A stretch of DNA of 64,000 nt, taken from the NCBI RefSeq assembly GCF_016026235.1, contig NZ_CP065613.1, one strand, 5' to 3'. Of the stretch, positions 4,434-64,000 are shown in pieces. Numbering within the stretch: position 1 is the stretch's first letter; the number at the start of each line of letters is the position of its first letter. Made by a program: the position numbers and the translations under genes. The notes under the pieces are model-generated. The model worked only from the letters and a program-made list of their open reading frames with translations, did not search any database and had not been told where the DNA came from. This DNA comes from Escherichia coli (GTDB lineage Bacteria > Pseudomonadota > Gammaproteobacteria > Enterobacterales > Enterobacteriaceae).

Positions 4434-4517
4434 GTAGGCCTGATAAGACGCTATCAGCGTCGCATCAGGCATCCTGCTCAAATGCCGGATGCGGCGTAAA
4501 CGCCTTATCCTGCCTAC
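4434..4517. repeat. BIME: two inverted REP elements
   Basis: gtaggcctgataagacgc...cgcatcaggc and gccggatgcggcgtaaacgccttatcc...ctac. Confidence 0.85.
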
Positions 4518-4528
4518 AAATGCGGAGT

Positions 4529-5902
4529 TTAACTCCGCTTATACAGCGGCAACCAAATCACCAGCCGTAAACCGCCCAGCGGGCTGTCTTCTGCTTTAAC
4601 CCAGCCACGATGCTGCTGAATGGCGGTTTCAACAATCGCCAGCCCCAATCCTGTACCGCCAGATTCACGATCGCGTGCTTCATCGGTCCGATAGAACGGA
4701 CGGAAAATCTGTTCGCGATCTTCCGGGCTAACGCCAGGACCATCGTCGTCCACCGTAATGGTGATACCGTCTTTATCTACCGCAAAGCCCACTTCAATCT
4801 TCGTATGGGAATAACGCAGAGCATTACGAACAATGTTTTCCAGCGCACTTTCCAGGGCGTTCGGATTGCCGTACAGCGGCCACGGCCCAGGCGGGAAGTT
4901 AACTGTCAACGACTTGCCCATTTGCTCGGCTTCGAACGCCGCGTTATCCAGCACTTCACTCCACAACTGGTTGGCTTTGATGGTTTCGCTAACCAGCGCG
5001 TTTTTTTGCTGATTACGTGACATCACCAACAGATCGTTGATCATGCTGTCCAGACGTTGCGCTTCGGTTTCAATACGCTCCAGTTCCTTGCTTTCACCGC
5101 TACGACGGCGCAGTAACGCCGTACCCAGTTGCAGACGCGTCAGCGGGGTGCGCAGCTCGTGAGAGATATCAGAAAGCAGACGCTGCTGAGAGGTCATCAT
5201 GCGCTCCAGCGCGGTGACCATCTGGTTAAAACTGGCACCTGCGGCAAGGAATTCCTGTGGCCCCGCTTCCAGTTCCGGGTGCTGGCGTAAGTTTCCCTGG
5301 GCAACTTCATCGGCAGCGTTTTTCAGCTTACGCGCCGGTTTTGCCAGACTCCAGGCCAACCACAACAGCAGCGGCGTACTGACCAACATGGTGACAATCA
5401 GCAGTAATAGCGGGCGGTCAAACAGTAAGTTAATGAAATCGGATTGAGAACTGCTGGCCGGACGAATCAGATAAAGTTGGTAATTATCTTCGCCATCACG
5501 CACGGAGAACGGACCGACCAGTTCCACGCGGCCATACTTTTTCTTCTGCGGATGATCGGCGTTATCGGCCTGACCAATAAAGTTACGAATGATCTGCATT
5601 TCGCTGCGTTCAGCGCCGATCACGCGGCCTTCGGTGGTCACCAATAACAAACGCTGTCCTGGCGGTGCCCACTTATCAATCGCCCGGAACAGACGCCGCC
5701 ACCACATTAAATCGTTGGGCGGATCGTTCGCCAGCTCCGCTTCAACATGCTGCTCAATCATCAGCCCCTGACGCTGTTCGCTATCCAGAAGCTCGGTCAT
5801 CTGGCGTGAATCGAGCTTGGGTAACATCAAAACCAACATCAACACCAGCGCCAGCGTCAGCCAGAAGATGGCGAAGATGCGCGCGGTTAAGCTGCCTATC
5901 AT
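4529..5902 (-). CDS. cpxA: Envelope-stress sensor histidine kinase CpxA
   Basis: 457-aa ORF; TM segments, HAMP and histidine kinase motifs; overlaps cpxR by 4 bp. Confidence 0.96.
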   Translation of the reverse strand: MIGSLTARIFAIFWLTLALVLMLVLMLPKLDSRQMTELLDSEQRQGLMIEQHVEAELANDPPNDLMWWRRLFRAIDKWAPPGQRLLLVTTEGRVIGAERSEMQIIRNFIGQADNADHPQKKKYGRVELVGPFSVRDGEDNYQLYLIRPASSSQSDFINLLFDRPLLLLIVTMLVSTPLLLWLAWSLAKPARKLKNAADEVAQGNLRQHPELEAGPQEFLAAGASFNQMVTALERMMTSQQRLLSDISHELRTPLTRLQLGTALLRRRSGESKELERIETEAQRLDSMINDLLVMSRNQQKNALVSETIKANQLWSEVLDNAAFEAEQMGKSLTVNFPPGPWPLYGNPNALESALENIVRNALRYSHTKIEVGFAVDKDGITITVDDDGPGVSPEDREQIFRPFYRTDEARDRESGGTGLGLAIVETAIQQHRGWVKAEDSPLGGLRLVIWLPLYKRS

Positions 5903-6597
5903 GAAGCAGAAACCATCAGGTAGCCGCGACCACGCAAGGTTTTAAACCACGGGTGACCATCTTTACGATCCGGCAGTTTACGACGCAGGTTGGAAATGTG
6001 CATATCGATAGCGCGGTCGAAAGGCGTCAGGCGTTTGCCCAGCACTTCCTGGCTTAAATGTTCACGGGAAACCACCTGACCCAGATGCTGTGCCAGCAAA
6101 TAGAGCAGGGTAAACTCAGTACCGGTTAACTCCAGCGTTTGCCCGTCGAAGCTGGCTTCCTGACGGCCTGGATTCAGCACTAAGGCATCAACTTCCAGTG
6201 TCGGTGAACCGTTGTCGTTGTTTTGCTGTTGCTCGCTCCAGTGCGAACGGCGCAGGATCGCGCGAATACGTGCCACCAGCTCACGATCATTAAACGGTTT
6301 CGGGAGATAGTCATCTGCGCCCAGCTCAAGGCCGAGAACGCGATCAAGTTCACTGCCGCGCGCCGTCAACATAATGACAGGCGTCTGGTGTGTCTGGCGA
6401 AGTGCTTTTAATGTGTCGATACCATTTTTCTTCGGCATCATTACGTCAAGCAAAAGTAAATCAATGCTGTCGTCCAGAAGATCAAGCGCCTGTTCCCCAT
6501 CGTGGGCAACAATCACGTTGAAGCCTTCCATCTCGAGCAGCTCCTTTAATAGGGAAGTCAGCTCTCGGTCATCATCAACTAACAGGATTTTATTCAT
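5899..6597 (-). CDS. cpxR: OmpR-family response regulator CpxR
   Basis: 232-aa ORF; receiver domain (MNKILLVDDD...) plus winged-helix C-terminus. Confidence 0.96.
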   Translation of the reverse strand: MNKILLVDDDRELTSLLKELLEMEGFNVIVAHDGEQALDLLDDSIDLLLLDVMMPKKNGIDTLKALRQTHQTPVIMLTARGSELDRVLGLELGADDYLPKPFNDRELVARIRAILRRSHWSEQQQNNDNGSPTLEVDALVLNPGRQEASFDGQTLELTGTEFTLLYLLAQHLGQVVSREHLSQEVLGKRLTPFDRAIDMHISNLRRKLPDRKDGHPWFKTLRGRGYLMVSAS

Positions 6598-6652
6598 TGT
6601 TTAAATACCTCCGAGGCAGAAATTACGTCATCAGACGTCGCTAATCCATGAC

Positions 6653-6667
6653 TTTACGTTGTTTTAC
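6653..6667 (-). promoter_or_regulatory. CpxR box in divergent cpxRA / cpxP promoter region
   Basis: Bottom strand reads gtaaaacaacgtaaa, i.e. GTAAA-N5-GTAAA. Confidence 0.7.
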
Positions 6668-6746
6668 ACCCCCTGACGCATGTTTGCAGCCTGAATCGTA
6701 AACTCTCTATCGTTGAATCGCGACAGAAAGATTTTGGGAGCAAATG

Positions 6747-7247
6747 ATGCGCATAGTTACCGCTGCCGTCATGGCCTCAACGCTGGCAGTCAGTTCATTA
6801 AGCCACGCTGCTGAAGTCGGTTCAGGCGATAACTGGCATCCGGGTGAAGAACTTACGCAGCGCAGTACGCAGAGCCATATGTTCGACGGCATAAGTTTAA
6901 CCGAACATCAGCGTCAGCAGATGCGAGATCTTATGCAACAGGCCCGGCACGAACAGCCTCCTGTTAATGTTAGCGAACTGGAGACAATGCATCGCCTTGT
7001 CACCGCAGAAAATTTTGATGAAAACGCTGTGCGCGCACAGGCAGAAAAAATGGCGAATGAGCAAATTGCTCGTCAGGTTGAGATGGCAAAAGTCCGCAAC
7101 CAAATGTATCGCCTGTTAACGCCGGAGCAGCAAGCGGTTTTAAACGAGAAACATCAACAACGAATGGAGCAGTTGCGCGACGTGACGCAATGGCAAAAAA
7201 GTTCATCGTTGAAGCTATTGAGTAGTAGCAACTCACGTTCCCAGTAG
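6747..7247 (+). CDS. cpxP: Periplasmic Cpx-pathway adaptor/inhibitor CpxP
   Basis: ORF track 6744..7247; start at second ATG ([11 protein letters not shown]...) giving 166 aa; signal peptide plus LTXXQ motifs. Confidence 0.93.
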
Positions 7248-7256
7248 TAAACCCTG

Positions 7257-7314
7257 TTTTCCTTGCCATAGACACCATCCCTGTCTTCCCCCACATGATG
7301 TGGGGGTTTTTTTT
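7257..7314 (+). ncRNA. cpxQ: CpxQ sRNA (processed from cpxP 3' UTR), inferred
   Basis: cpxP 3' UTR ending in strong hairpin cccccacatgatgtggggg (7288-7306) plus T-run; CpxQ is known to derive from this 3' UTR; 5' end not determinable here. Confidence 0.45.
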
Positions 7315-7315
7315 A
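7288..7315 (+). terminator. cpxP intrinsic terminator
   Basis: Perfect 8-bp GC-rich stem with 3-nt loop followed by 8 T. Confidence 0.85.
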
Positions 7316-7395
7316 TCCTCAATTTGCCTGCTGCTTAATGCATTGCGGATGATTTGCTTCCGTTATACTAGCGTCAGTTGATAGCGGGAGTATTT

Positions 7396-8298
7396 ATGAA
7401 TCAATCTTATGGACGGCTGGTCAGTCGGGCGGCGATTGCTGCGACGGCGATGGCTTCGCTGCTATTGCTGATTAAAATTTTTGCATGGTGGTATACCGGG
7501 TCGGTGAGTATTCTCGCCGCGCTGGTGGATTCGCTGGTGGATATCGGCGCGTCGTTGACGAATTTATTGGTAGTGCGATATTCCCTGCAACCTGCCGACG
7601 ATAATCACTCGTTTGGTCACGGTAAAGCTGAGTCCCTCGCGGCGCTGGCGCAAAGTATGTTTATCTCCGGTTCGGCACTATTCCTGTTTTTGACAGGCAT
7701 TCAACATCTGATATCTCCAACACCGATGACAGATCCAGGCGTCGGGGTTATCGTGACAATTGTGGCGCTAATTTGTACGATTATCCTTGTCTCGTTTCAG
7801 CGTTGGGTGGTGCGCCGGACGCAAAGCCAGGCGGTGCGGGCTGATATGCTACATTACCAGTCTGATGTTATGATGAACGGCGCAATTCTGCTGGCGCTGG
7901 GGTTGTCCTGGTACGGCTGGCATCGCGCCGATGCTCTGTTTGCATTGGGAATCGGCATCTATATTTTATATAGCGCGTTACGCATGGGATATGAGGCGGT
8001 ACAGTCATTACTGGATCGCGCATTACCTGATGAGGAACGGCAAGAAATTATTGATATCGTGACTTCCTGGCCGGGTGTTAGCGGCGCTCACGATCTTCGC
8101 ACGCGGCAGTCAGGGCCGACCCGCTTTATTCAGATTCATTTGGAAATGGAAGACTCTCTGCCTTTGGTTCAGGCACATATGGTGGCGGATCAGGTAGAGC
8201 AGGCTATTTTACGGCGTTTTCCGGGATCGGATGTGATTATCCATCAGGACCCCTGTTCCGTCGTACCCAGGGAGGGTAAACGGTCTATGCTTTCATAA
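7396..8298 (+). CDS. fieF: Cation-diffusion facilitator Fe/Zn efflux protein
   Basis: ORF track 7378..8298; start at ATG 7396 ([19 protein letters not shown]...) giving 300 aa. Confidence 0.93.
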
Positions 8299-9497: not shown

Positions 9498-9595
9498 GCC
9501 TGATGCGCTTCGCTTATCAGGCCTACGTGAATTCTGCAATTTATTGAATTTACAAACTTTTGTAGGCCGGATAAGGCGTTCGCGCCTCATCCGGC
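9498..9595. repeat. BIME: two inverted REP elements
   Basis: gcctgatgcgcttcgcttatcaggcctac ... gtaggccggataaggcgttcgcgcctcatccggc. Confidence 0.85.
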
Positions 9596-16506: not shown

Positions 16507-16612
16507 AGCAAACTCTAAGCAGTAAGGAATGGCGCGAAGTGTAGCACAGGGGAAGGGAGGGATTATTGATGTGTGCGGGGTTGCCCCCGCACGGTTTCAG
16601 AGTCTGCGTGAT

Positions 16613-16700
16613 GCCGGATGCGGCGTGAACGCCTTATCCCGCCTACACAAAATGGCATTGGCTCGTAGGCCTGATAAGACGCGTAAGCGTCGCATCAGGC
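16613..16700. repeat. BIME: two inverted REP elements
   Basis: gccggatgcggcgtgaacgccttatcccgcctac ... gtaggcctgataagacgcgtaagcgtcgcatcaggc. Confidence 0.85.
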
Positions 16701-16735
16701 GAGCAGCATCAGGCAATCGATTCAGGTGCCTGACA

Positions 16736-19474: not shown

Positions 19475-19783
<309 letters not shown>

Positions 19784-19797
19784 TCTCTTCCATGCAG

Positions 19798-19823
19798 AGG
19801 CGCCGCAAGGCGCCTTATTTTTT
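19798..19823 (+). terminator. zapB intrinsic terminator
   Basis: Hairpin aggcgcc-gcaa-ggcgcct then tattttttac. Confidence 0.85.
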
Positions 19824-20538
19824 ACTTCACTGTATTTTTAGCAGACAACATAATCTCCATCGCCTGTTGGCGATATTTATCTGCCGTATCTGGCTCCATT
19901 AATGCAATGATCCCCACAGCCCTGGGGGTGTCTTCAAGATAAACACTGATGGTTCTTTTCTGCTGACCATCAAAATTTATCAACACATCCTGATACTTAC
20001 AGGTGAAATGTTTGGCATTACAATCATGAAACTGGAAGGTTTCTTCATTGTATTGATCCTTGAGATTGTCTCGCTGCATCTTCTTTAACTCTTCCAGCGA
20101 GTCATCGGCGCTACGTCCTGCGGGCAGGCGGAAAGCAGAAATAAAGACGCTATTATCTTCACTTCTTATATCAATGGTTTTATCAGTACTAATAGAAACC
20201 GTATTCCAGTGTCGGTTTGGGACAGTCACGGAAATAGCTGCCTTCTCAAACGTATAGTGCCACGGGGTGAACAGACGAAACGTATTGCCGACGTTGGATA
20301 AAAGCAGGACTCCCAATACCCAACAGCACCCGCGAGTAAAACTGGCGAAGTTACGCGTTTTTTTAGTGAATGTGCACAGAATACCTGACACAAGCACGGG
20401 AAGTAATAACGGCCCAAGAAGTACTGAACCGATATACTCGCCAACCATCCCAGGATCTCCAGTAAGCAAGTTACTGTGCTGAAGATGACTAAGAAAAATG
20501 GTTATTATCCATAGTATTAATAAGATAACGTATCTCAT
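19822..20538 (-). CDS. Uncharacterised integral membrane protein, islet paralog B (3 predicted TM helices plus ~150-aa C-terminal domain with CX6C pair)
   Basis: 238-aa ORF; hydrophobic segments near residues 3-18, 34-56, 70-84; about one-third identical to the upstream ORF; AT-rich; not part of the K-12 gene order as recalled. Confidence 0.75.
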   Translation of the reverse strand: MRYVILLILWIITIFLSHLQHSNLLTGDPGMVGEYIGSVLLGPLLLPVLVSGILCTFTKKTRNFASFTRGCCWVLGVLLLSNVGNTFRLFTPWHYTFEKAAISVTVPNRHWNTVSISTDKTIDIRSEDNSVFISAFRLPAGRSADDSLEELKKMQRDNLKDQYNEETFQFHDCNAKHFTCKYQDVLINFDGQQKRTISVYLEDTPRAVGIIALMEPDTADKYRQQAMEIMLSAKNTVK

Positions 20539-20570
20539 ATCAATCCATTATTATTAACATGCACATCAGA

Positions 20571-21257
20571 TCATTGACGAGCAGAAAGCATCATTTTCAT
20601 TACTTCTTCTTGATATTCGTCCAAATAATCTGGGTCGATAGCTGCGACCAGTTGTATCAAATTAGTGTTATCCAGTAGAGTCATGAAAATAGCATGTCTT
20701 ACTTTGCCATCACTCATTGTTTGCACTCCTTCCTGATAAGCGCAGGCAAATCCCTGAACATCACAAACATGCATTTCTGCAGTTCCGTTTTGAGTCGCGG
20801 TAAGTTCCTCGATTGAATGCACACCGAGTTCATTTTGTGAGAAGGCAACAATAGCTAAAATAGCATGGGCATCCCGGGTCACCAGGGTTGGTCCTTGTTT
20901 TACTATATTGGCAACCCACTGTTTGCTCGGAACCGTGACGGTGATACCTGGCTCCGGGAAAGTATAATCCCATATGCTGTGTCGTTCCCACACCGTATAG
21001 CTGCTATAGATAAGAAATAATCCCATTAACCAACAAGTGCCGCGAATAAAGCTGCGGCTGCTTCTTTTTTTTATCGTTATACAGATTATTGTGGCGATAA
21101 TAAATGATAAGGCAAGTGGGTTAAAAAATACGTTAGCAAAATATAAAATCATTTCACCCGCGTTGCCAGATAAAAGAAATTTGTAGCGGAAATGGTTAAC
21201 GGCTATAAGTAATAAATATATAAATAAAAGAATAATATTCTGCATGAATACGTCCAT
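20571..21257 (-). CDS. Uncharacterised integral membrane protein, islet paralog A (3 predicted TM helices plus ~150-aa C-terminal domain with CX6C pair)
   Basis: 228-aa ORF; alternative start at ATG 21245 (MQNIILL...) has a slightly better GGA spacer; paralogous to 19822..20538; AT-rich. Confidence 0.75.
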   Translation of the reverse strand: MDVFMQNIILLFIYLLLIAVNHFRYKFLLSGNAGEMILYFANVFFNPLALSFIIATIICITIKKRSSRSFIRGTCWLMGLFLIYSSYTVWERHSIWDYTFPEPGITVTVPSKQWVANIVKQGPTLVTRDAHAILAIVAFSQNELGVHSIEELTATQNGTAEMHVCDVQGFACAYQEGVQTMSDGKVRHAIFMTLLDNTNLIQLVAAIDPDYLDEYQEEVMKMMLSARQ

Positions 21258-21263
21258 GTATAA

Positions 21264-21288
21264 AAAAGGGGAATTTAATTCCCCTTTT
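21264..21288 (-). terminator. rraA intrinsic terminator (bidirectional hairpin)
   Basis: Perfect 11-bp stem aaaaggggaat-tta-attcccctttt; on the minus-strand transcript it is followed by a U-tract. Confidence 0.8.
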
Positions 21289-21304
21289 AACGCATGGCAG
21301 ATAC

Positions 21305-21790
21305 TTATTCAATATCCAGCGGATCTTCTGAAAGAATAATCCCGGTATTGTCGGCATAAAGATGGTCGCCGGAGAAGAAGGTAACACCGCCAAAATTGAC
21401 GCGGACATCGCTTTCGCCAATGCCTTCGCCAGCGGCACCAACCGGAATTGCCGCCATCGCCTGGATGCCGATATCCAACTCTTCCAGGTCATCTACCTGA
21501 CGCACCGCGCCGTAAATGACCAGACCTTCCCATTCATTTTGTACTGCCAGACGCGCCAGTTCAGCATCGACCAGTGCGCGACGAACAGAACCACCGCCAT
21601 CGACGACAAGAACACGACCACGGCCATTCTGTTCGAGCAGATCGTACAGCAACCCGTTGTCCTCGAAACATTTTACCGTGATTATTTGTCCGCCAAACGA
21701 CGCCCGTCCGCCAAAGTTGGAGAACAGCGGTTCCACGACGTTAACATCTTCTTGATAGATGTCACAAAGCTCGGAAGTATCGTATTTCAT
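21305..21790 (-). CDS. rraA: RNase E inhibitor RraA
   Basis: 161-aa ORF ([28 protein letters not shown]...). Confidence 0.95.
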
Positions 21791-24216: not shown

Positions 24217-24747
24217 TTACGCTTTGTAGCTTAATTCTTCGATGGTGTGGAAATGGTTGGTATAGATGCAAATGTCGCCTGCAATATCCAACGCCTTTTC
24301 AGCAATTTCACGGGCGCTAAGTTCAGTGTTTTCTAACAGCGCGCGCGCCGCAGCCTGGGCGTAAGGGCCGCCGGAGCCGATAGCAATAAGATCGTTTTCT
24401 GGCTGCACCACGTCACCGTTACCGGTGATGATAAGCGATGCAGTTTCATCCGCGACTGCCAGCAGTGCTTCAAGTTTGCGCAGCATGCGATCGGTACGCC
24501 AGTCTTTTGCCAGCTCAACGGCGGCTTTAACCAGATGGCCCTGATGCATTTCCAGTTTACGTTCAAACAGTTCGAACAGCGTAAAAGCATCCGCAGTACC
24601 GCCCGCAAAGCCCGCGATGACTTTGTCGTTGTACAGACGGCGGACCTTTTTCACGTTGCCTTTCATTACGGTATTGCCCAACGTGGCCTGACCATCACCA
24701 GCGATGACCACATGGCCGTTACGGCGTACGCTTACTATAGTTGTCAC
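24217..24747 (-). CDS. hslV: ATP-dependent protease subunit HslV
   Basis: 176-aa ORF ([31 protein letters not shown]...). Confidence 0.97.
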
Positions 24748-24816
24748 GAGCTGACCCCTTGGTTACGAATACAGAGTACAAACCCCGTACAAAAGTACGG
24801 GGCATAATGCAATTAT

Positions 24817-27071: not shown

Positions 27072-29429
<2,358 letters not shown>

Positions 29430-29433
29430 TTAG

Positions 29434-29685
<252 letters not shown>

Positions 29686-30411: not shown

Positions 30412-30508
30412 GCCGGATGCGGCGTGAACGCCTTATCCGGCCTACAAGTTCGTGCAAATTCAATAAATTGCAATATGACGTAGGCCTGATAAGCGTAGCG
30501 CATCAGGC
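30412..30508. repeat. BIME: two inverted REP elements with AT-rich spacer
   Basis: gccggatgcggcgtgaacgccttatccggcctac ... gtaggcctgataagcgtagcgcatcaggc. Confidence 0.85.
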
Positions 30509-46454: not shown

Positions 46455-48306
46455 ATGACGAATCGTATCTCTCGCCTCAAAACTGCACTGTTTGCCAATA
46501 CCCGTGAAATCTCGCTGGAGCGGGCGCTGCTTTATACCGCCAGCCATCGGCAAACCGAAGGCGAACCGGTGATATTGCGCCGGGCGAAAGCAACAGCGTA
46601 TATCCTTGAACATGTTGAAATTTCGATTCGTGATGAAGAACTGATTGCCGGTAACCGCACCGTAAAACCGCGCGCCGGGATTATGTCGCCGGAAATGGAC
46701 CCTTACTGGCTGCTGAAAGAGCTGGATCAATTCCCGACGCGTCCGCAGGACCGCTTTGCTATCAGCGAAGAAGATAAACGTATCTACCGTGAAGAGTTGT
46801 TCCCGTACTGGGAAAAACGTTCGATGAAAGATTTCATCAACGGGCAGATGACAGATGAAGTAAAAGCCGCGACCAACACGCAGATTTTCAGCATCAACCA
46901 GACGGATAAAGGCCAGGGGCACATTATTATTGATTACCCACGCCTGTTGAATCACGGTCTGGGTGAGCTGGTGGCACAGATGCAGCAACATTGTCAGCAA
47001 CAGCCGGAGAATCACTTTTATCAGGCCGCGTTGTTACTGCTGGAAGCCTCGCAGAAACACATTTTGCGTTACGCCGAACTGGCGGAAACGATGGCGGCAA
47101 ACTGCACAGATGCCCAGCGTCGCGAAGAACTGCTGACTATTGCGGAGATCTCTCGCCATAACGCCGAACATAAGCCGCAGACGTTCTGGCAGGCGTGCCA
47201 GTTATTCTGGTACATGAACATCATTCTGCAATACGAATCCAACGCCAGTTCGCTATCGCTGGGGCGCTTCGACCAGTATATGTTGCCGTTCTATCAGGCA
47301 TCATTAACCCAGGGCGAAGATCCGGCGTTCCTGAAAGAACTGCTCGAATCTTTATGGGTGAAATGCAACGACATCGTGCTGTTGCGCTCCACCAGCAGCG
47401 CGCGTTATTTCGCAGGTTTCCCGACCGGCTATACCGCACTGCTCGGCGGGTTAACCGAGAACGGACGTAGCGCGGTGAACGTGCTTTCGTTCCTTTGCCT
47501 TGATTATCAGCGATTGTCTGGAAAAAGGTCGCGATATTACCGATGGCGGCGCGCGTTATAACTTCTCCGGCGTACAGGGGATCGGTATCGCCAACCTGAG
47601 CGATTCTCTCCATGCGTTGAAAGGGATGGTTTTTGAGCAACAGCGTTTAAGTTTTGACGAATTGCTGTCGGTATTAAAAGCCAACTTTGCAACGCCAGAA
47701 GGCGAAAAAGTCCGTGCTCGCTTAATTAACCGCTTCGAGAAATACGGTAACGATATCGACGAGGTGGATAACATCAGCGCCGAACTGTTACGCCACTACT
47801 GCAAAGAAGTGGAAAAATACCAGAACCCGCGCGGCGGTTACTTCACGCCGGGATCGTATACCGTTTCTGCTCACGTCCCGTTGGGATCGGTGGTTGGCGC
47901 GACGCCAGACGGTCGTTTTGCCGGGGAACAACTGGCAGACGGCGGCTTGTCACCTATGCTGGGCCAGGACGCACAAGGGCCAACAGCGGTACTGAAGTCA
48001 GTCAGTAAGCTCGATAATACGCTGCTGTCTAACGGTACGTTGCTGAACGTGAAATTCACTCCGGCGACCCTGGAAGGTGAAGCGGGATTACGCAAACTGG
48101 CCGACTTCTTACGGGCGTTTACCCAGCTTAAGTTGCAGCATATTCAGTTTAACGTGGTGAACGCCGACACGTTGCGGGAAGCGCAACAGCGCCCACAAGA
48201 TTATGCCGGGCTGGTGGTGCGCGTTGCCGGATACAGCGCCTTCTTTGTCGAACTGTCGAAGGAGATCCAGGATGACATCATCCGCCGGACAGCGCATCAG
48301 CTGTAA
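46455..48306 (+). pseudogene. pflD: pflD (glycyl-radical formate acetyltransferase 2 homologue) disrupted by an internal deletion and frameshift
   Basis: N-terminal 350 aa read in frame 0 to ...NVLSFLCLD, then switch to frame +1 at about 47505 (ISDCLEKGRD...) through the glycyl-radical motif RVAGYSAFF to the normal stop; total 1852 bp versus about 2298 bp expected for the 765-aa protein. Confidence 0.75.
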
Positions 48307-55113: not shown

Positions 55114-55361
55114 ATTACCCCAGACACCCCATCTTATCGTTTGATAGCCCTGTATCCTTCACGTCGCATTGGCGCGAATATGCTCGGGCTTTGCTTTTCA
55201 TCGTCTTTTATAAAGCCACGTAAAAGCGATGACGTCAAATGCTGCGAAATCGCTTCAGCAAACGAATAAATAGCAGGAATTTACGTCATTAAATTCACGA
55301 CGCTTTAAATAAGCGTAACTTATGGGAATGTTAAAAAATCGCCTCAAGTAACACCAAAGGT

Positions 55362-55461
55362 GTAGGTCGGATAAGATGCGCAAGTATCGCATCCGACATT
55401 ATTGCGGCACTGGAGTTTGGCAACAGTGCCGGATGCGGCGCAAGCGCCTTATTCGGCCTAC
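55362..55461. repeat. BIME: two inverted REP elements
   Basis: gtaggtcggataagatgcgcaagtatcgcatccgac ... gccggatgcggcgcaagcgccttattcggcctac. Confidence 0.85.
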
Positions 55462-55464
55462 GTT

Positions 55465-60045: not shown

Positions 60046-60163
60046 CAAAAAAAAGCGGATCCTGGAGATCCGCAAAAGTTCACGTTGGCTTTAGTTATTC
60101 GAGTTGAGAAACTCTCGAAACGGGCAGTGACTTCAAGGGTTAAAAGAGGTGCCGCTCCGTTTC
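60046..60163 (-). ncRNA. oxyS: OxyS oxidative-stress small RNA
   Basis: Minus strand reads gaaacggagcggcacctcttttaacccttgaagtcactgcccgtttcgagag..., matching oxyS as recalled; ends in hairpin gcggatc-ctgga-gatccgc plus U-tract. Confidence 0.85.
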
Positions 60164-62559: not shown

Positions 62560-62809
62560 GGTAGGGCTTACCTGTTCTTATACATAAAAGCAACAGAATG
62601 GTAACATTTTATCGCGGGTAAGCCAATTGATCCCCGTCATTAATCTGGCTATAGCGTGAGCGGCCTTTGCTTTGTCTGCCTCCTTCTTAACCCATTTATT
62701 CACTATTAATCGCTTTTTATTATGGCTGATAGTTTTATCTTGCCGAAGCGTGCTTTTTTGTTATTGTCTTTATGAAATCTTCTTATAAAACAAACATATA
62801 AATATTTTA

Positions 62810-62843
62810 TATTGATGGGTTATTTGTATTTATACCATCAATA
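62810..62843. promoter_or_regulatory. Candidate operator: 9-bp perfect inverted repeat upstream of the M20D hydrolase gene
   Basis: tattgatgg-N16-ccatcaata in an AT-rich region, 46 bp upstream of ATG 62889. Confidence 0.35.
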
Positions 62844-62888
62844 AAATCCGTTAATTAGCCTGTTTATAAGTGAATAAAGGAATAGCCG

Positions 62889-64000
62889 ATGATCGAACAC
62901 TATATTCGAGGGTTTGAGGAAGAACTGCGTGAGATCCGCCATCAGATCCACGAAAACCCGGAGCTGGGATTACAAGAATTTAAAACCAGTGCTTTGGTTG
63001 CGGAAAAGCTGCGTCAGTGGGGCTATGAAGTAGAGCAAGGACTGGCGACGACGGGGATAGTGGCCACGTTAAAAGTGGGCGACGGAGAGAAAAGTATTGG
63101 CCTGCGGGCGGATATGGATGCGCTGCCGATTTATGAAAATAGTGGCAAGCCCTGGGCCAGTAAACATCCTGGTTTAATGCACGCCTGCGGGCATGACGGG
63201 CATACCACCATACTGCTGGGGGCCGCGCGTTATTTTGCCGAAACCCGCCGTTTTAACGGCACGTTACGTCTTATCTTCCAGCCTGCGGAAGAGATGATTA
63301 ATGGCGGTGAGATCATGGTTAAAGAGGGGCTTTTTGATCATTTCCCCTGCGATGTCATTTTCGGCATGCATAACATGCCCGGTCTGCCGGTGGGTAAGTT
63401 TTATTTCCAGCCAGGGGCACTGATGGCGTCAATGGATCAGTTCCATATTACAGTTCGTGGTTGTGGCGGACACGGTGCGATCCCGCACAAAGCCATCGAT
63501 CCGGTGCTAGTTGCCGCACATATCACCACCGCATTACAAAGCATTGTGTCACGCAATGTCGATCCGCTGGAAGCGGCGGTAATTACCGTCGGCAGCATTG
63601 TTGCGGGTGAGGCGGCTAACGTCATTCCTGACAGTGCTGAGATGAAAATCAGCGTCCGCTCTCTTAGCCGCGATACCCGACAACTTCTTCTGACCCGTAT
63701 TCCTGCTCTGGCACAAGCCCAGGCTGCCAGCTTTGGCGCTACGGCTGAGGTTACGCATGTTAACGGTACACCAGTATTAGTAAATGACGAGGAGATGGCG
63801 CGCTTCGCCTGGCAGGTGGCGTGTAAAACGTTTGGTGAAGATCGGGCCGAGTTTGGCATCAAGCCTCTGATGGGCAGTGAAGATTTCTCTTTCATGCTGG
63901 AAGCCCAACCCAAAGGCGGTTTCCTGTTATTCGGTAATGGCGATGTCGGGGAAGGTTCCTGCATGGTGCATAACCCGGGTTACGACTTCAACGATGCAAG
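62889..64000 (+). CDS. M20D-family amidohydrolase (aminoacylase / hippurate-hydrolase-like), 3' end outside window
   Basis: ATG 62889 with aagga RBS; no stop before window end; translation MIEHYIRGFEEELREIRHQIHENPELG...MHACGHDGHTTILLGAARYF... carries the metal-binding signature typical of peptidase M20D; missed by the ORF track because it is open-ended. Confidence 0.8.
   Translation, partial: MIEHYIRGFEEELREIRHQIHENPELGLQEFKTSALVAEKLRQWGYEVEQGLATTGIVATLKVGDGEKSIGLRADMDALPIYENSGKPWASKHPGLMHACGHDGHTTILLGAARYFAETRRFNGTLRLIFQPAEEMINGGEIMVKEGLFDHFPCDVIFGMHNMPGLPVGKFYFQPGALMASMDQFHITVRGCGGHGAIPHKAIDPVLVAAHITTALQSIVSRNVDPLEAAVITVGSIVAGEAANVIPDSAEMKISVRSLSRDTRQLLLTRIPALAQAQAASFGATAEVTHVNGTPVLVNDEEMARFAWQVACKTFGEDRAEFGIKPLMGSEDFSFMLEAQPKGGFLLFGNGDVGEGSCMVHNPGYDFNDA

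Follow-up and report, generated by a model that had tools for sequence, protein, structure and literature searches.

In the literature the binding site of the response regulator CpxR is described as a direct repeat with the consensus GTAAA-N5(-6)-GTAAA, and two known sites, cpxR/cpxP1 (GTAAAACAACGTAAA) and cpxR/cpxP2 (GCAAACATGCGTCAG), are listed in Table S1 of PMC9600279. Both cpxP and cpxR were found among the direct CpxR targets by ChIP-exo, and NlpE was shown to induce cpxP 60-fold, an induction which is lost in a cpxR deletion. The 3' untranslated region (UTR) of cpxP furthermore gives rise to the small RNA (sRNA) CpxQ, the mature form of which has a length of 58 nt and carries its functional seed at the 5' end. 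Its biogenesis and its targets are supported by published work on RNase E processing, the 5'-monophosphate end and Hfq. Within the seed, U7 pairs with nhaB and C11 pairs with cfa, the latter having been checked by compensatory mutants. In Erwinia amylovora, the Hfq-regulated sRNA 1 (Hrs1) has been described in the cpxP-fieF intergenic region, with the orientation of the two flanking genes and with a Rho-independent terminator.

The same intergenic region is known as an integration site of P2-like phages. The attB site of WPhi and L-413C was mapped at the MG1655 coordinate 4104392 in a paper of 2011, in which the P2-type sites were described as lying mostly between genes. Prophages have been reported between cpxP and fieF in E. 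coli W (Wphi1) as well as in an O157:H7 strain and in Salmonella Infantis, with a size of about 31 kb in the latter two.

Gene content and identity of the Cpx locus

The analysed window is a stretch of 64,000 nucleotides of chromosomal E. coli DNA, to which all positions refer unless stated otherwise. It contains the genes kdgT-yiiM-cpxA-cpxR-cpxP-cpxQ-fieF-pfkA in the same order as the K-12 genome. The protein-coding genes of the Cpx locus and its downstream bound are the following:

4529-5902, minus strand: cpxA, sensor histidine kinase of 457 aa (ORF; Pfam domains CpxA_peri, HAMP, HisKA and HATPase_c; aligned position annotated as cpxA in K-12 and in strain FDAARGOS_943)
5899-6597, minus strand: cpxR, OmpR-type response regulator of 232 aa (ORF; Pfam domains Response_reg and Trans_reg_C; annotation)
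6747-7247, plus strand: cpxP coding sequence, 166 aa plus stop codon, periplasmic stress modulator of the LTXXQ family (ORF with start at 6744 or 6747; alignment to K-12 b4484)
7396-8298, plus strand: fieF, CDF cation exporter, downstream bound of the locus (Pfam domains Cation_efflux and ZT_dimer; annotation)

The divergent orientation of cpxRA at 4529-6597 on the minus strand was confirmed by the ORFs, the Pfam domains and the K-12 annotation. The two genes overlap by 4 nt and are separated from cpxP by a divergent control region of 149 bp, while a spacer of 148 bp lies between cpxP and fieF.

According to a megablast search the region from 6560 to 7400 is present in 5,425 of 5,426 complete E. 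coli genomes and shares 100% identity with the strains FDAARGOS_943 and YZMc3-1. In FDAARGOS_943 the matching region is annotated with cpxR, cpxP and fieF, and RefSeq places cpxP at the same position. The alignment with K-12 MG1655 revealed 838 identical bases out of 841, the three differences being located in cpxP (7178), at nucleotide 42 of CpxQ (7298) and in the spacer before fieF (7347). The single difference in cpxP affects a third codon position (CGC/CGT) and is synonymous. The deduced protein matches the LTXXQ family (Pfam PF07813) with 78.3 bits at a cut-off of 24.3 and is thus assigned to this family. The open reading frame of cpxP, which the preliminary description had counted among the intact elements, extends to 7247.

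Based on these comparisons the locus almost certainly represents the canonical Cpx envelope-stress module of E. coli, so that the strain would possess an intact Cpx stress circuit. The preliminary description had regarded the regulatory hub as intact and had seen nothing novel in it. We agree on both points as far as the Cpx elements are concerned: all of them match the characterised K-12 locus, CpxA, CpxR and CpxP contain the expected domains, and the CpxR boxes, cpxP and CpxQ correspond to published K-12 elements, which are already known and hold no new biology in themselves. The locus rather serves as a reliable landmark, by which the DNA is assigned to E. coli and placed on the map at about 88 min (about 4.10 Mb in K-12 coordinates).

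CpxR boxes in the divergent control region

Two CpxR boxes were detected between cpxR and cpxP:

6653-6667, minus strand: CpxR box 1, GTAAAACAACGTAAA, a perfect GTAAA-N5-GTAAA (sequence; identical to the published cpxR/cpxP1)
6673-6687, minus strand: CpxR box 2, GCAAACATGCGTCAG, degenerate (exact match to cpxR/cpxP2 in PMC9600279)

Box 1, which had been pointed out before as a canonical CpxR box, reads TTTACGTTGTTTTAC on the plus strand and GTAAAACAACGTAAA on the minus strand, and it is thus on the minus strand that the GTAAA repeat is read. It is the only exact GTAAA-N5-GTAAA within the 64-kb window. In dinucleotide shuffles of the window exact matches occurred with a mean of 0.09 per window and at least once in 7 of 100 shuffles, so that one exact box by itself is only mildly unlikely by chance and chance is not overwhelmingly excluded. 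Since this rarity is mild, the meaning of box 1 derives from its position and from its identity to the published site. It precedes the ATG of cpxR by 56 nt and that of cpxP by 80 nt, the former spacing being in agreement with the homologous CpxR site of Yersinia, which was reported about 55 nt upstream of cpxR. Box 2, a known degenerate CpxR site which the preliminary description did not contain, follows after a gap of 5 bp. Both 15-mers are the same as the published cpxR/cpxP1 and cpxR/cpxP2 boxes with no difference detected, and the alignment of the entire cpxRA-cpxP intergenic region showed no difference from K-12.

A scan of the region from 6400 to 7500 for sigma-70 promoters did not reveal any promoter-like site. 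The missing sigma-70-like site fits an activator-dependent promoter, and the promoters of cpxP and cpxRA are thus not placed by the scan.

The sRNA CpxQ in the cpxP 3' UTR

In K-12 MG1655 cpxQ (b4716) is a curated ncRNA gene at 4106330-4106387. Its alignment to the window and the predicted fold of the RNA yielded the following features:

7256/7257, plus strand: putative RNase E processing site generating the 5' end of CpxQ (aligned 5' end of K-12 cpxQ; RNase E from the literature)
7257-7314, plus strand: CpxQ sRNA, 58 nt (K-12 b4716 mapped by alignment, 57 of 58 nt identical)
approximately 7257-7269, plus strand: single-stranded 5' seed of CpxQ (predicted fold)
7270-7274 paired with 7282-7286, plus strand: small hairpin of CpxQ (predicted fold)
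7288-7295 paired with 7299-7306, plus strand: terminator stem of CpxQ with the loop 7296-7298 (predicted fold)
7307-7314, plus strand: U8 tract of CpxQ (sequence)

CpxQ is encoded on the same strand as cpxP, begins 9 nt past the stop codon of cpxP and has the U tract of the cpxP terminator at its 3' end. This supports the earlier suggestion that the 3' UTR is the source of CpxQ. The sRNA resembles K-12 cpxQ and the CpxQ of Salmonella in position, in its length of 58 nt and in the predicted fold. The only difference from K-12 concerns nucleotide 42 (7298), which lies in the terminator loop of 3 nt and is an A in the window and a C in K-12. Nucleotides 1-41, including the 5' seed with U7 and C11, are the same as in K-12, and hence there is no divergence of the kind that would disrupt the seed and speak against a CpxQ of the known type.

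The stable hairpin followed by a U-tract, which had been noted at the end of the 3' UTR, was also found in our analysis. The hairpin at 7288-7306 consists of 8 bp, six of them G-C, and a 3-nt loop and is followed by T8. For the 58-nt RNA a fold energy of -17.4 kcal/mol was calculated (z = -2.74 in comparison to shuffled sequences). With its 8-bp stem and U8 tract CpxQ possesses a Rho-independent terminator, that is, the Hfq-binding 3' module.

The stretch of 78 nt around CpxQ with the A allele is the same in 4,100 of 5,426 E. coli records, and the 58-nt CpxQ of the window is identical in at least 21 loci of other species among the matches listed. A at position 7298 is therefore the commoner allele and the C of K-12 the less common variant. 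The idea that a phage integration had left the loop difference behind as a scar was considered and rejected, A being the majority allele in E. coli as well as in other genera.

It is highly unlikely that CpxQ is transcribed from a promoter of its own inside cpxP instead of being processed from the cpxP mRNA. Such an origin would be compatible with the sequence alone, and internal promoters exist in some 3' UTR-derived sRNAs. However, the scan mentioned above found no sigma-70-like site in the region from 6400 to 7500, and according to the literature CpxQ is processed with the help of RNase E, carries a 5' monophosphate and is lost upon mutation of the cleavage site. The release of CpxQ from the cpxP mRNA is thus the preferred reading.

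The phage attachment site within cpxQ

Two aspects of CpxQ were missing from the preliminary description: the exact 5' end of the sRNA and the fact that its 3' two-thirds represent an attachment site of P2-type phages.

7271-7317, no strand assigned: 47-nt attB core of WPhi-type P2-like phages, not occupied here (100% identity to WPhi, NC_005056)

A segment of the WPhi genome (NC_005056) between ogr and int is identical to this sequence in 47 of 47 nt. The core comprises nucleotides 15-58 of CpxQ and three additional nucleotides. When the 78-nt stretch around CpxQ was used as query, 673 more match places than records were obtained. One of the extra places was a 45/45-nt match on a circular 32.3-kb record designated as a plasmid, which proved to be the genome of a P2-like phage and in which the integrase gene ends at a distance of about 110 bp from the match. 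Furthermore, 62 phage records match the attP region, mostly at the core; they belong mostly to Peduovirus and include L-413C, SEN4/5 and phiT5282H.

Complete P2-like prophages flanked by the core as direct repeats were identified between cpxP and fieF in E. coli ECONIH5 and in the O145:NM strain FWSEC0002, where the repeats are spaced by 32.4 and 33.7 kb, respectively. CpxQ is preserved over its full 58 nt at the cpxP-side junction (attL) of both lysogens. Among 5,425 complete E. coli genomes, 4,590 matched the query for the empty site without interruption, whereas the site is split in the remaining 835 (15%), of which two were checked by annotation, both carrying a P2-like prophage.

The site in the window thus resembles the WPhi/L-413C attB in its 47-nt identity to the attP core of WPhi and in the cpxP-fieF prophages found in other E. 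coli strains, and differs from these occupied loci in being empty. Judging by its sequence and by the prophages flanked by it in other genomes, it is the attB of WPhi-type P2-like phages; as regards the recombination by the integrase itself, we refer to the published mapping of WPhi. Our literature search, the coverage of which was incomplete, found no paper connecting CpxQ with attB, the two matches obtained being unrelated. The attachment site is long known and was mapped before CpxQ; its position inside the cpxQ gene is not stated in the literature searched. In practical terms, a long-known site of WPhi and L-413C lies inside an sRNA gene, and insertion splits it in about 15% of the complete E. 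coli genomes.

Conservation of CpxQ in the Enterobacterales

For the comparison across species one genome per species was scanned with a pattern internal to CpxQ, in which 18 nt were fixed and 8 nt free. At least 120 loci matched. Among those listed, 102 were genuine cpxP 3' UTR sites and 18 were chance matches in unrelated taxa. The 102 listed loci span Photorhabdus, Proteus, Morganella, Yersinia, Serratia, Dickeya, Erwinia, Pantoea, Enterobacter and Citrobacter. Nucleotides 1-30 of CpxQ, including the 8 nt left free in the pattern, are almost invariant in these listed loci of the Enterobacterales, with the reservation that retrieval by a CpxQ-internal pattern over-represents conserved copies. 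Regarding the positions outside the fixed part, the 4 nt before the pattern and the 8 free nucleotides are almost invariant as well, and TAGACACC was found in 57 of 61 unique variants among the matches listed.

The terminator hairpin, on the other hand, occurs with 31 different versions of the stem arms among the listed loci. When the sequences were folded individually, all 61 unique variants among the matches listed adopted the fold of seed, small hairpin and terminator with U tract. RNAalifold applied to a MAFFT alignment of the 61 variants called only the small invariant hairpin, from which no covariation information can be drawn, and missed the terminator owing to differences in the length and register of the stem.

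These data bear on the question whether the cpxP 3' UTR is a terminator only, its conservation resulting from termination or from the use as phage attachment site, with no sRNA involved. The 3' UTR does contain a strong intrinsic terminator, and the positions 7271-7317 do represent the core of a phage attB. Nevertheless, the invariant part is the unstructured region of nucleotides 1-30, whereas the stem is free to vary (31 versions among the matches listed), and the invariant nucleotides 1-14 are located outside the attB core. In a base-pairing sRNA an invariant unstructured 5' part is expected together with a freely co-varying terminator, and in a mere terminator the opposite. Taking furthermore into account that the E. 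coli sRNA and its seed mutants (C11G) are documented by experiment, with published Northern blots and compensatory mutants contradicting an absence of the sRNA, a mere terminator appears very improbable, and we regard the region as an sRNA gene that at the same time harbours the attachment site.

A gene or gene fragment of a WPhi/P2-type integrase was detected right after CpxQ in 12 of the 102 listed species loci (L009, L016, L019, L023, L029, L047, L053, L075, L078, L084, L096 and L108). These integrases are encoded on the opposite strand, about 140-155 nt past the conserved CpxQ block, and their hosts belong to Photorhabdus, Acerihabitans, Rosenbergiella, Serratia and Erwinia and include one soil MAG. 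Their location after CpxQ in these hosts indicates that the attachment site is used across the Enterobacterales, beside terminator hairpins that are specific for the respective host.

Possible exchange of CpxQ 3' modules

The position of the core raises the idea that WPhi-type P2 integrases may use the almost invariant nucleotides 15-30 of CpxQ as a landing site throughout the order and that the phage copies could move 3' modules between species, which we regard as rather doubtful. Each phage carries a CpxQ 3' module of its own, consisting of small hairpin, terminator and U tract, and its integration, its decay or a recombination between the core repeats could swap the CpxQ 3' modules across species.

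Edwardsiella hoshinae (L070) and Pantoea sp. 1.19 (L045) possess exactly the terminator hairpin of the E. coli/WPhi type, unlike their close relatives. In both loci CpxQ and fieF are also separated by 1.5-1.9 kb of extra DNA, compared to about 50 nt in their relatives. A search of this extra DNA in the two loci revealed neither a second copy of the core nor an integrase, and a phage-mediated replacement therefore stays a hint. The exchange is based on such thin hints, namely the hairpins and the extra DNA of the two loci and the integrases in 12 of the 102 listed loci. A further idea is that a second copy lacking the seed, located at attR or attP and putatively expressed, might compete for Hfq.

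Hrs1 in Rfam and the missing annotation of CpxQ

Rfam 15 does not contain a CpxQ family, and no match to CpxQ or Hrs1 was obtained at the gathering level when the whole window was compared with Rfam. The only related match was Hrs1 (RF02628) at 7242-7314 on the minus strand, which with 44.5 bits stays below the gathering score of 56.4 and does not qualify as a member of this family.

In Erwinia persicina (locus L046) the Hrs1 model matches at 5697-5771 with 82.7 bits, not on the strand that carries cpxP and fieF but on the other one. RF02628 is stored in the wrong orientation, since its consensus corresponds to a reversed terminator and since the strand does not agree with that of the genes in Erwinia persicina. 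Based on its location between cpxP and fieF, the shared strand and the terminator described in the source paper, we consider Hrs1 to be the Erwinia orthologue of CpxQ. RF02628 and the CpxQ of E. coli thus have in common the cpxP-fieF locus and homologous sequence, while the model differs in its strand, which is opposite to cpxP, and the E. coli sequence falls below its threshold.

Read literally, the Hrs1 match with its E-value of 4.3e-07 would place the true RNA gene on the minus strand. This is, however, exceedingly improbable given the low score and the following observations. The consensus of the model opens with A7 followed by a G+C-rich hairpin, which is a reverse-complemented terminator, and in the window no U tract is found past the hairpin on the minus strand. 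According to the source paper, hrs1 has the same orientation as its flanking genes cpxP and fieF and possesses a Rho-independent terminator. In Erwinia persicina the model match is on the plus strand, whereas cpxP, fieF and the CpxQ-like sequence are all on the minus strand. We therefore retain the plus strand as the coding strand of CpxQ.

No ncRNA is annotated at the position of CpxQ in FDAARGOS_943 or in the other PGAP-annotated genomes examined, and the orientation and the threshold of Hrs1 may be the reason for it. Rfam-based annotation misses CpxQ, as there is no family for it and the Hrs1 model has the wrong strand and is too narrow.

Proposed mechanism

In the following scheme the identity, the fold and the conservation of the parts were computed here, while what is said on the binding of CpxR, on the cleavage by RNase E, on Hfq and on the targets follows the literature. 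Upon envelope stress CpxA would become active and CpxR would be phosphorylated. Phosphorylated CpxR is supposed to bind the tandem boxes at 6653-6667 and 6673-6687 and thereby to activate cpxP rightward and autoregulate cpxRA leftward. The monocistronic cpxP mRNA would give rise to two products, the periplasmic CpxP protein and the sRNA CpxQ. The latter is presumably released by an RNase E cut 9 nt past the stop codon, its 3' end being the intrinsic terminator of cpxP, and is probably stabilised by Hfq. With its single-stranded 5' end and together with Hfq it would repress nhaB, skp, cfa, agp, fimA and ydjN. In the strain analysed here CpxQ would be transcribed, processed and bound by Hfq in the same way.

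Further elements and differences from K-12 in the window

The comparison of the window with Rfam yielded, as is to be expected for this region of the E. coli chromosome, the following matches at the gathering level:

4437-4514: naRNA4, a REP-type element between yiiM and cpxA
9519-9560 and 30446-30487: two ES036 elements
24745-24802: ClpQY (hslVU) promoter element
29414-29466: L31 leader
60054-60163: OxyS

Apart from the Cpx locus the window deviates from K-12 at several places. About 1.4 kb between zapB and rraA (19780-21306) are absent from K-12 and contain two paralogous genes on the minus strand predicted to encode hypothetical membrane proteins of 238 and 228 aa; 657 of 5,425 E. coli genomes contain this stretch in full. 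In pflD (46455-48306), 446 bp of the K-12 gene are missing at 47503/47504. The gene is split into two ORFs of 368 and 268 aa and for this reason looks like a pseudogene in the strain. The sequence past sthA (62679-64000) has no counterpart in K-12, in which fabR is located there. According to the annotation of other E. coli genomes it encodes a protein of the M20 aminoacylase family, and it was found with a coverage of at least 80% in 1,506 of 5,426 genomes. Two further differences concern intergenic repeats: the one near glpX-glpK (16599-16732) comprises 134 nt compared to 40 nt in K-12, and the copy number of a repeat unit of about 100 nt between ppc and argE (55361-55464) differs from that in K-12.
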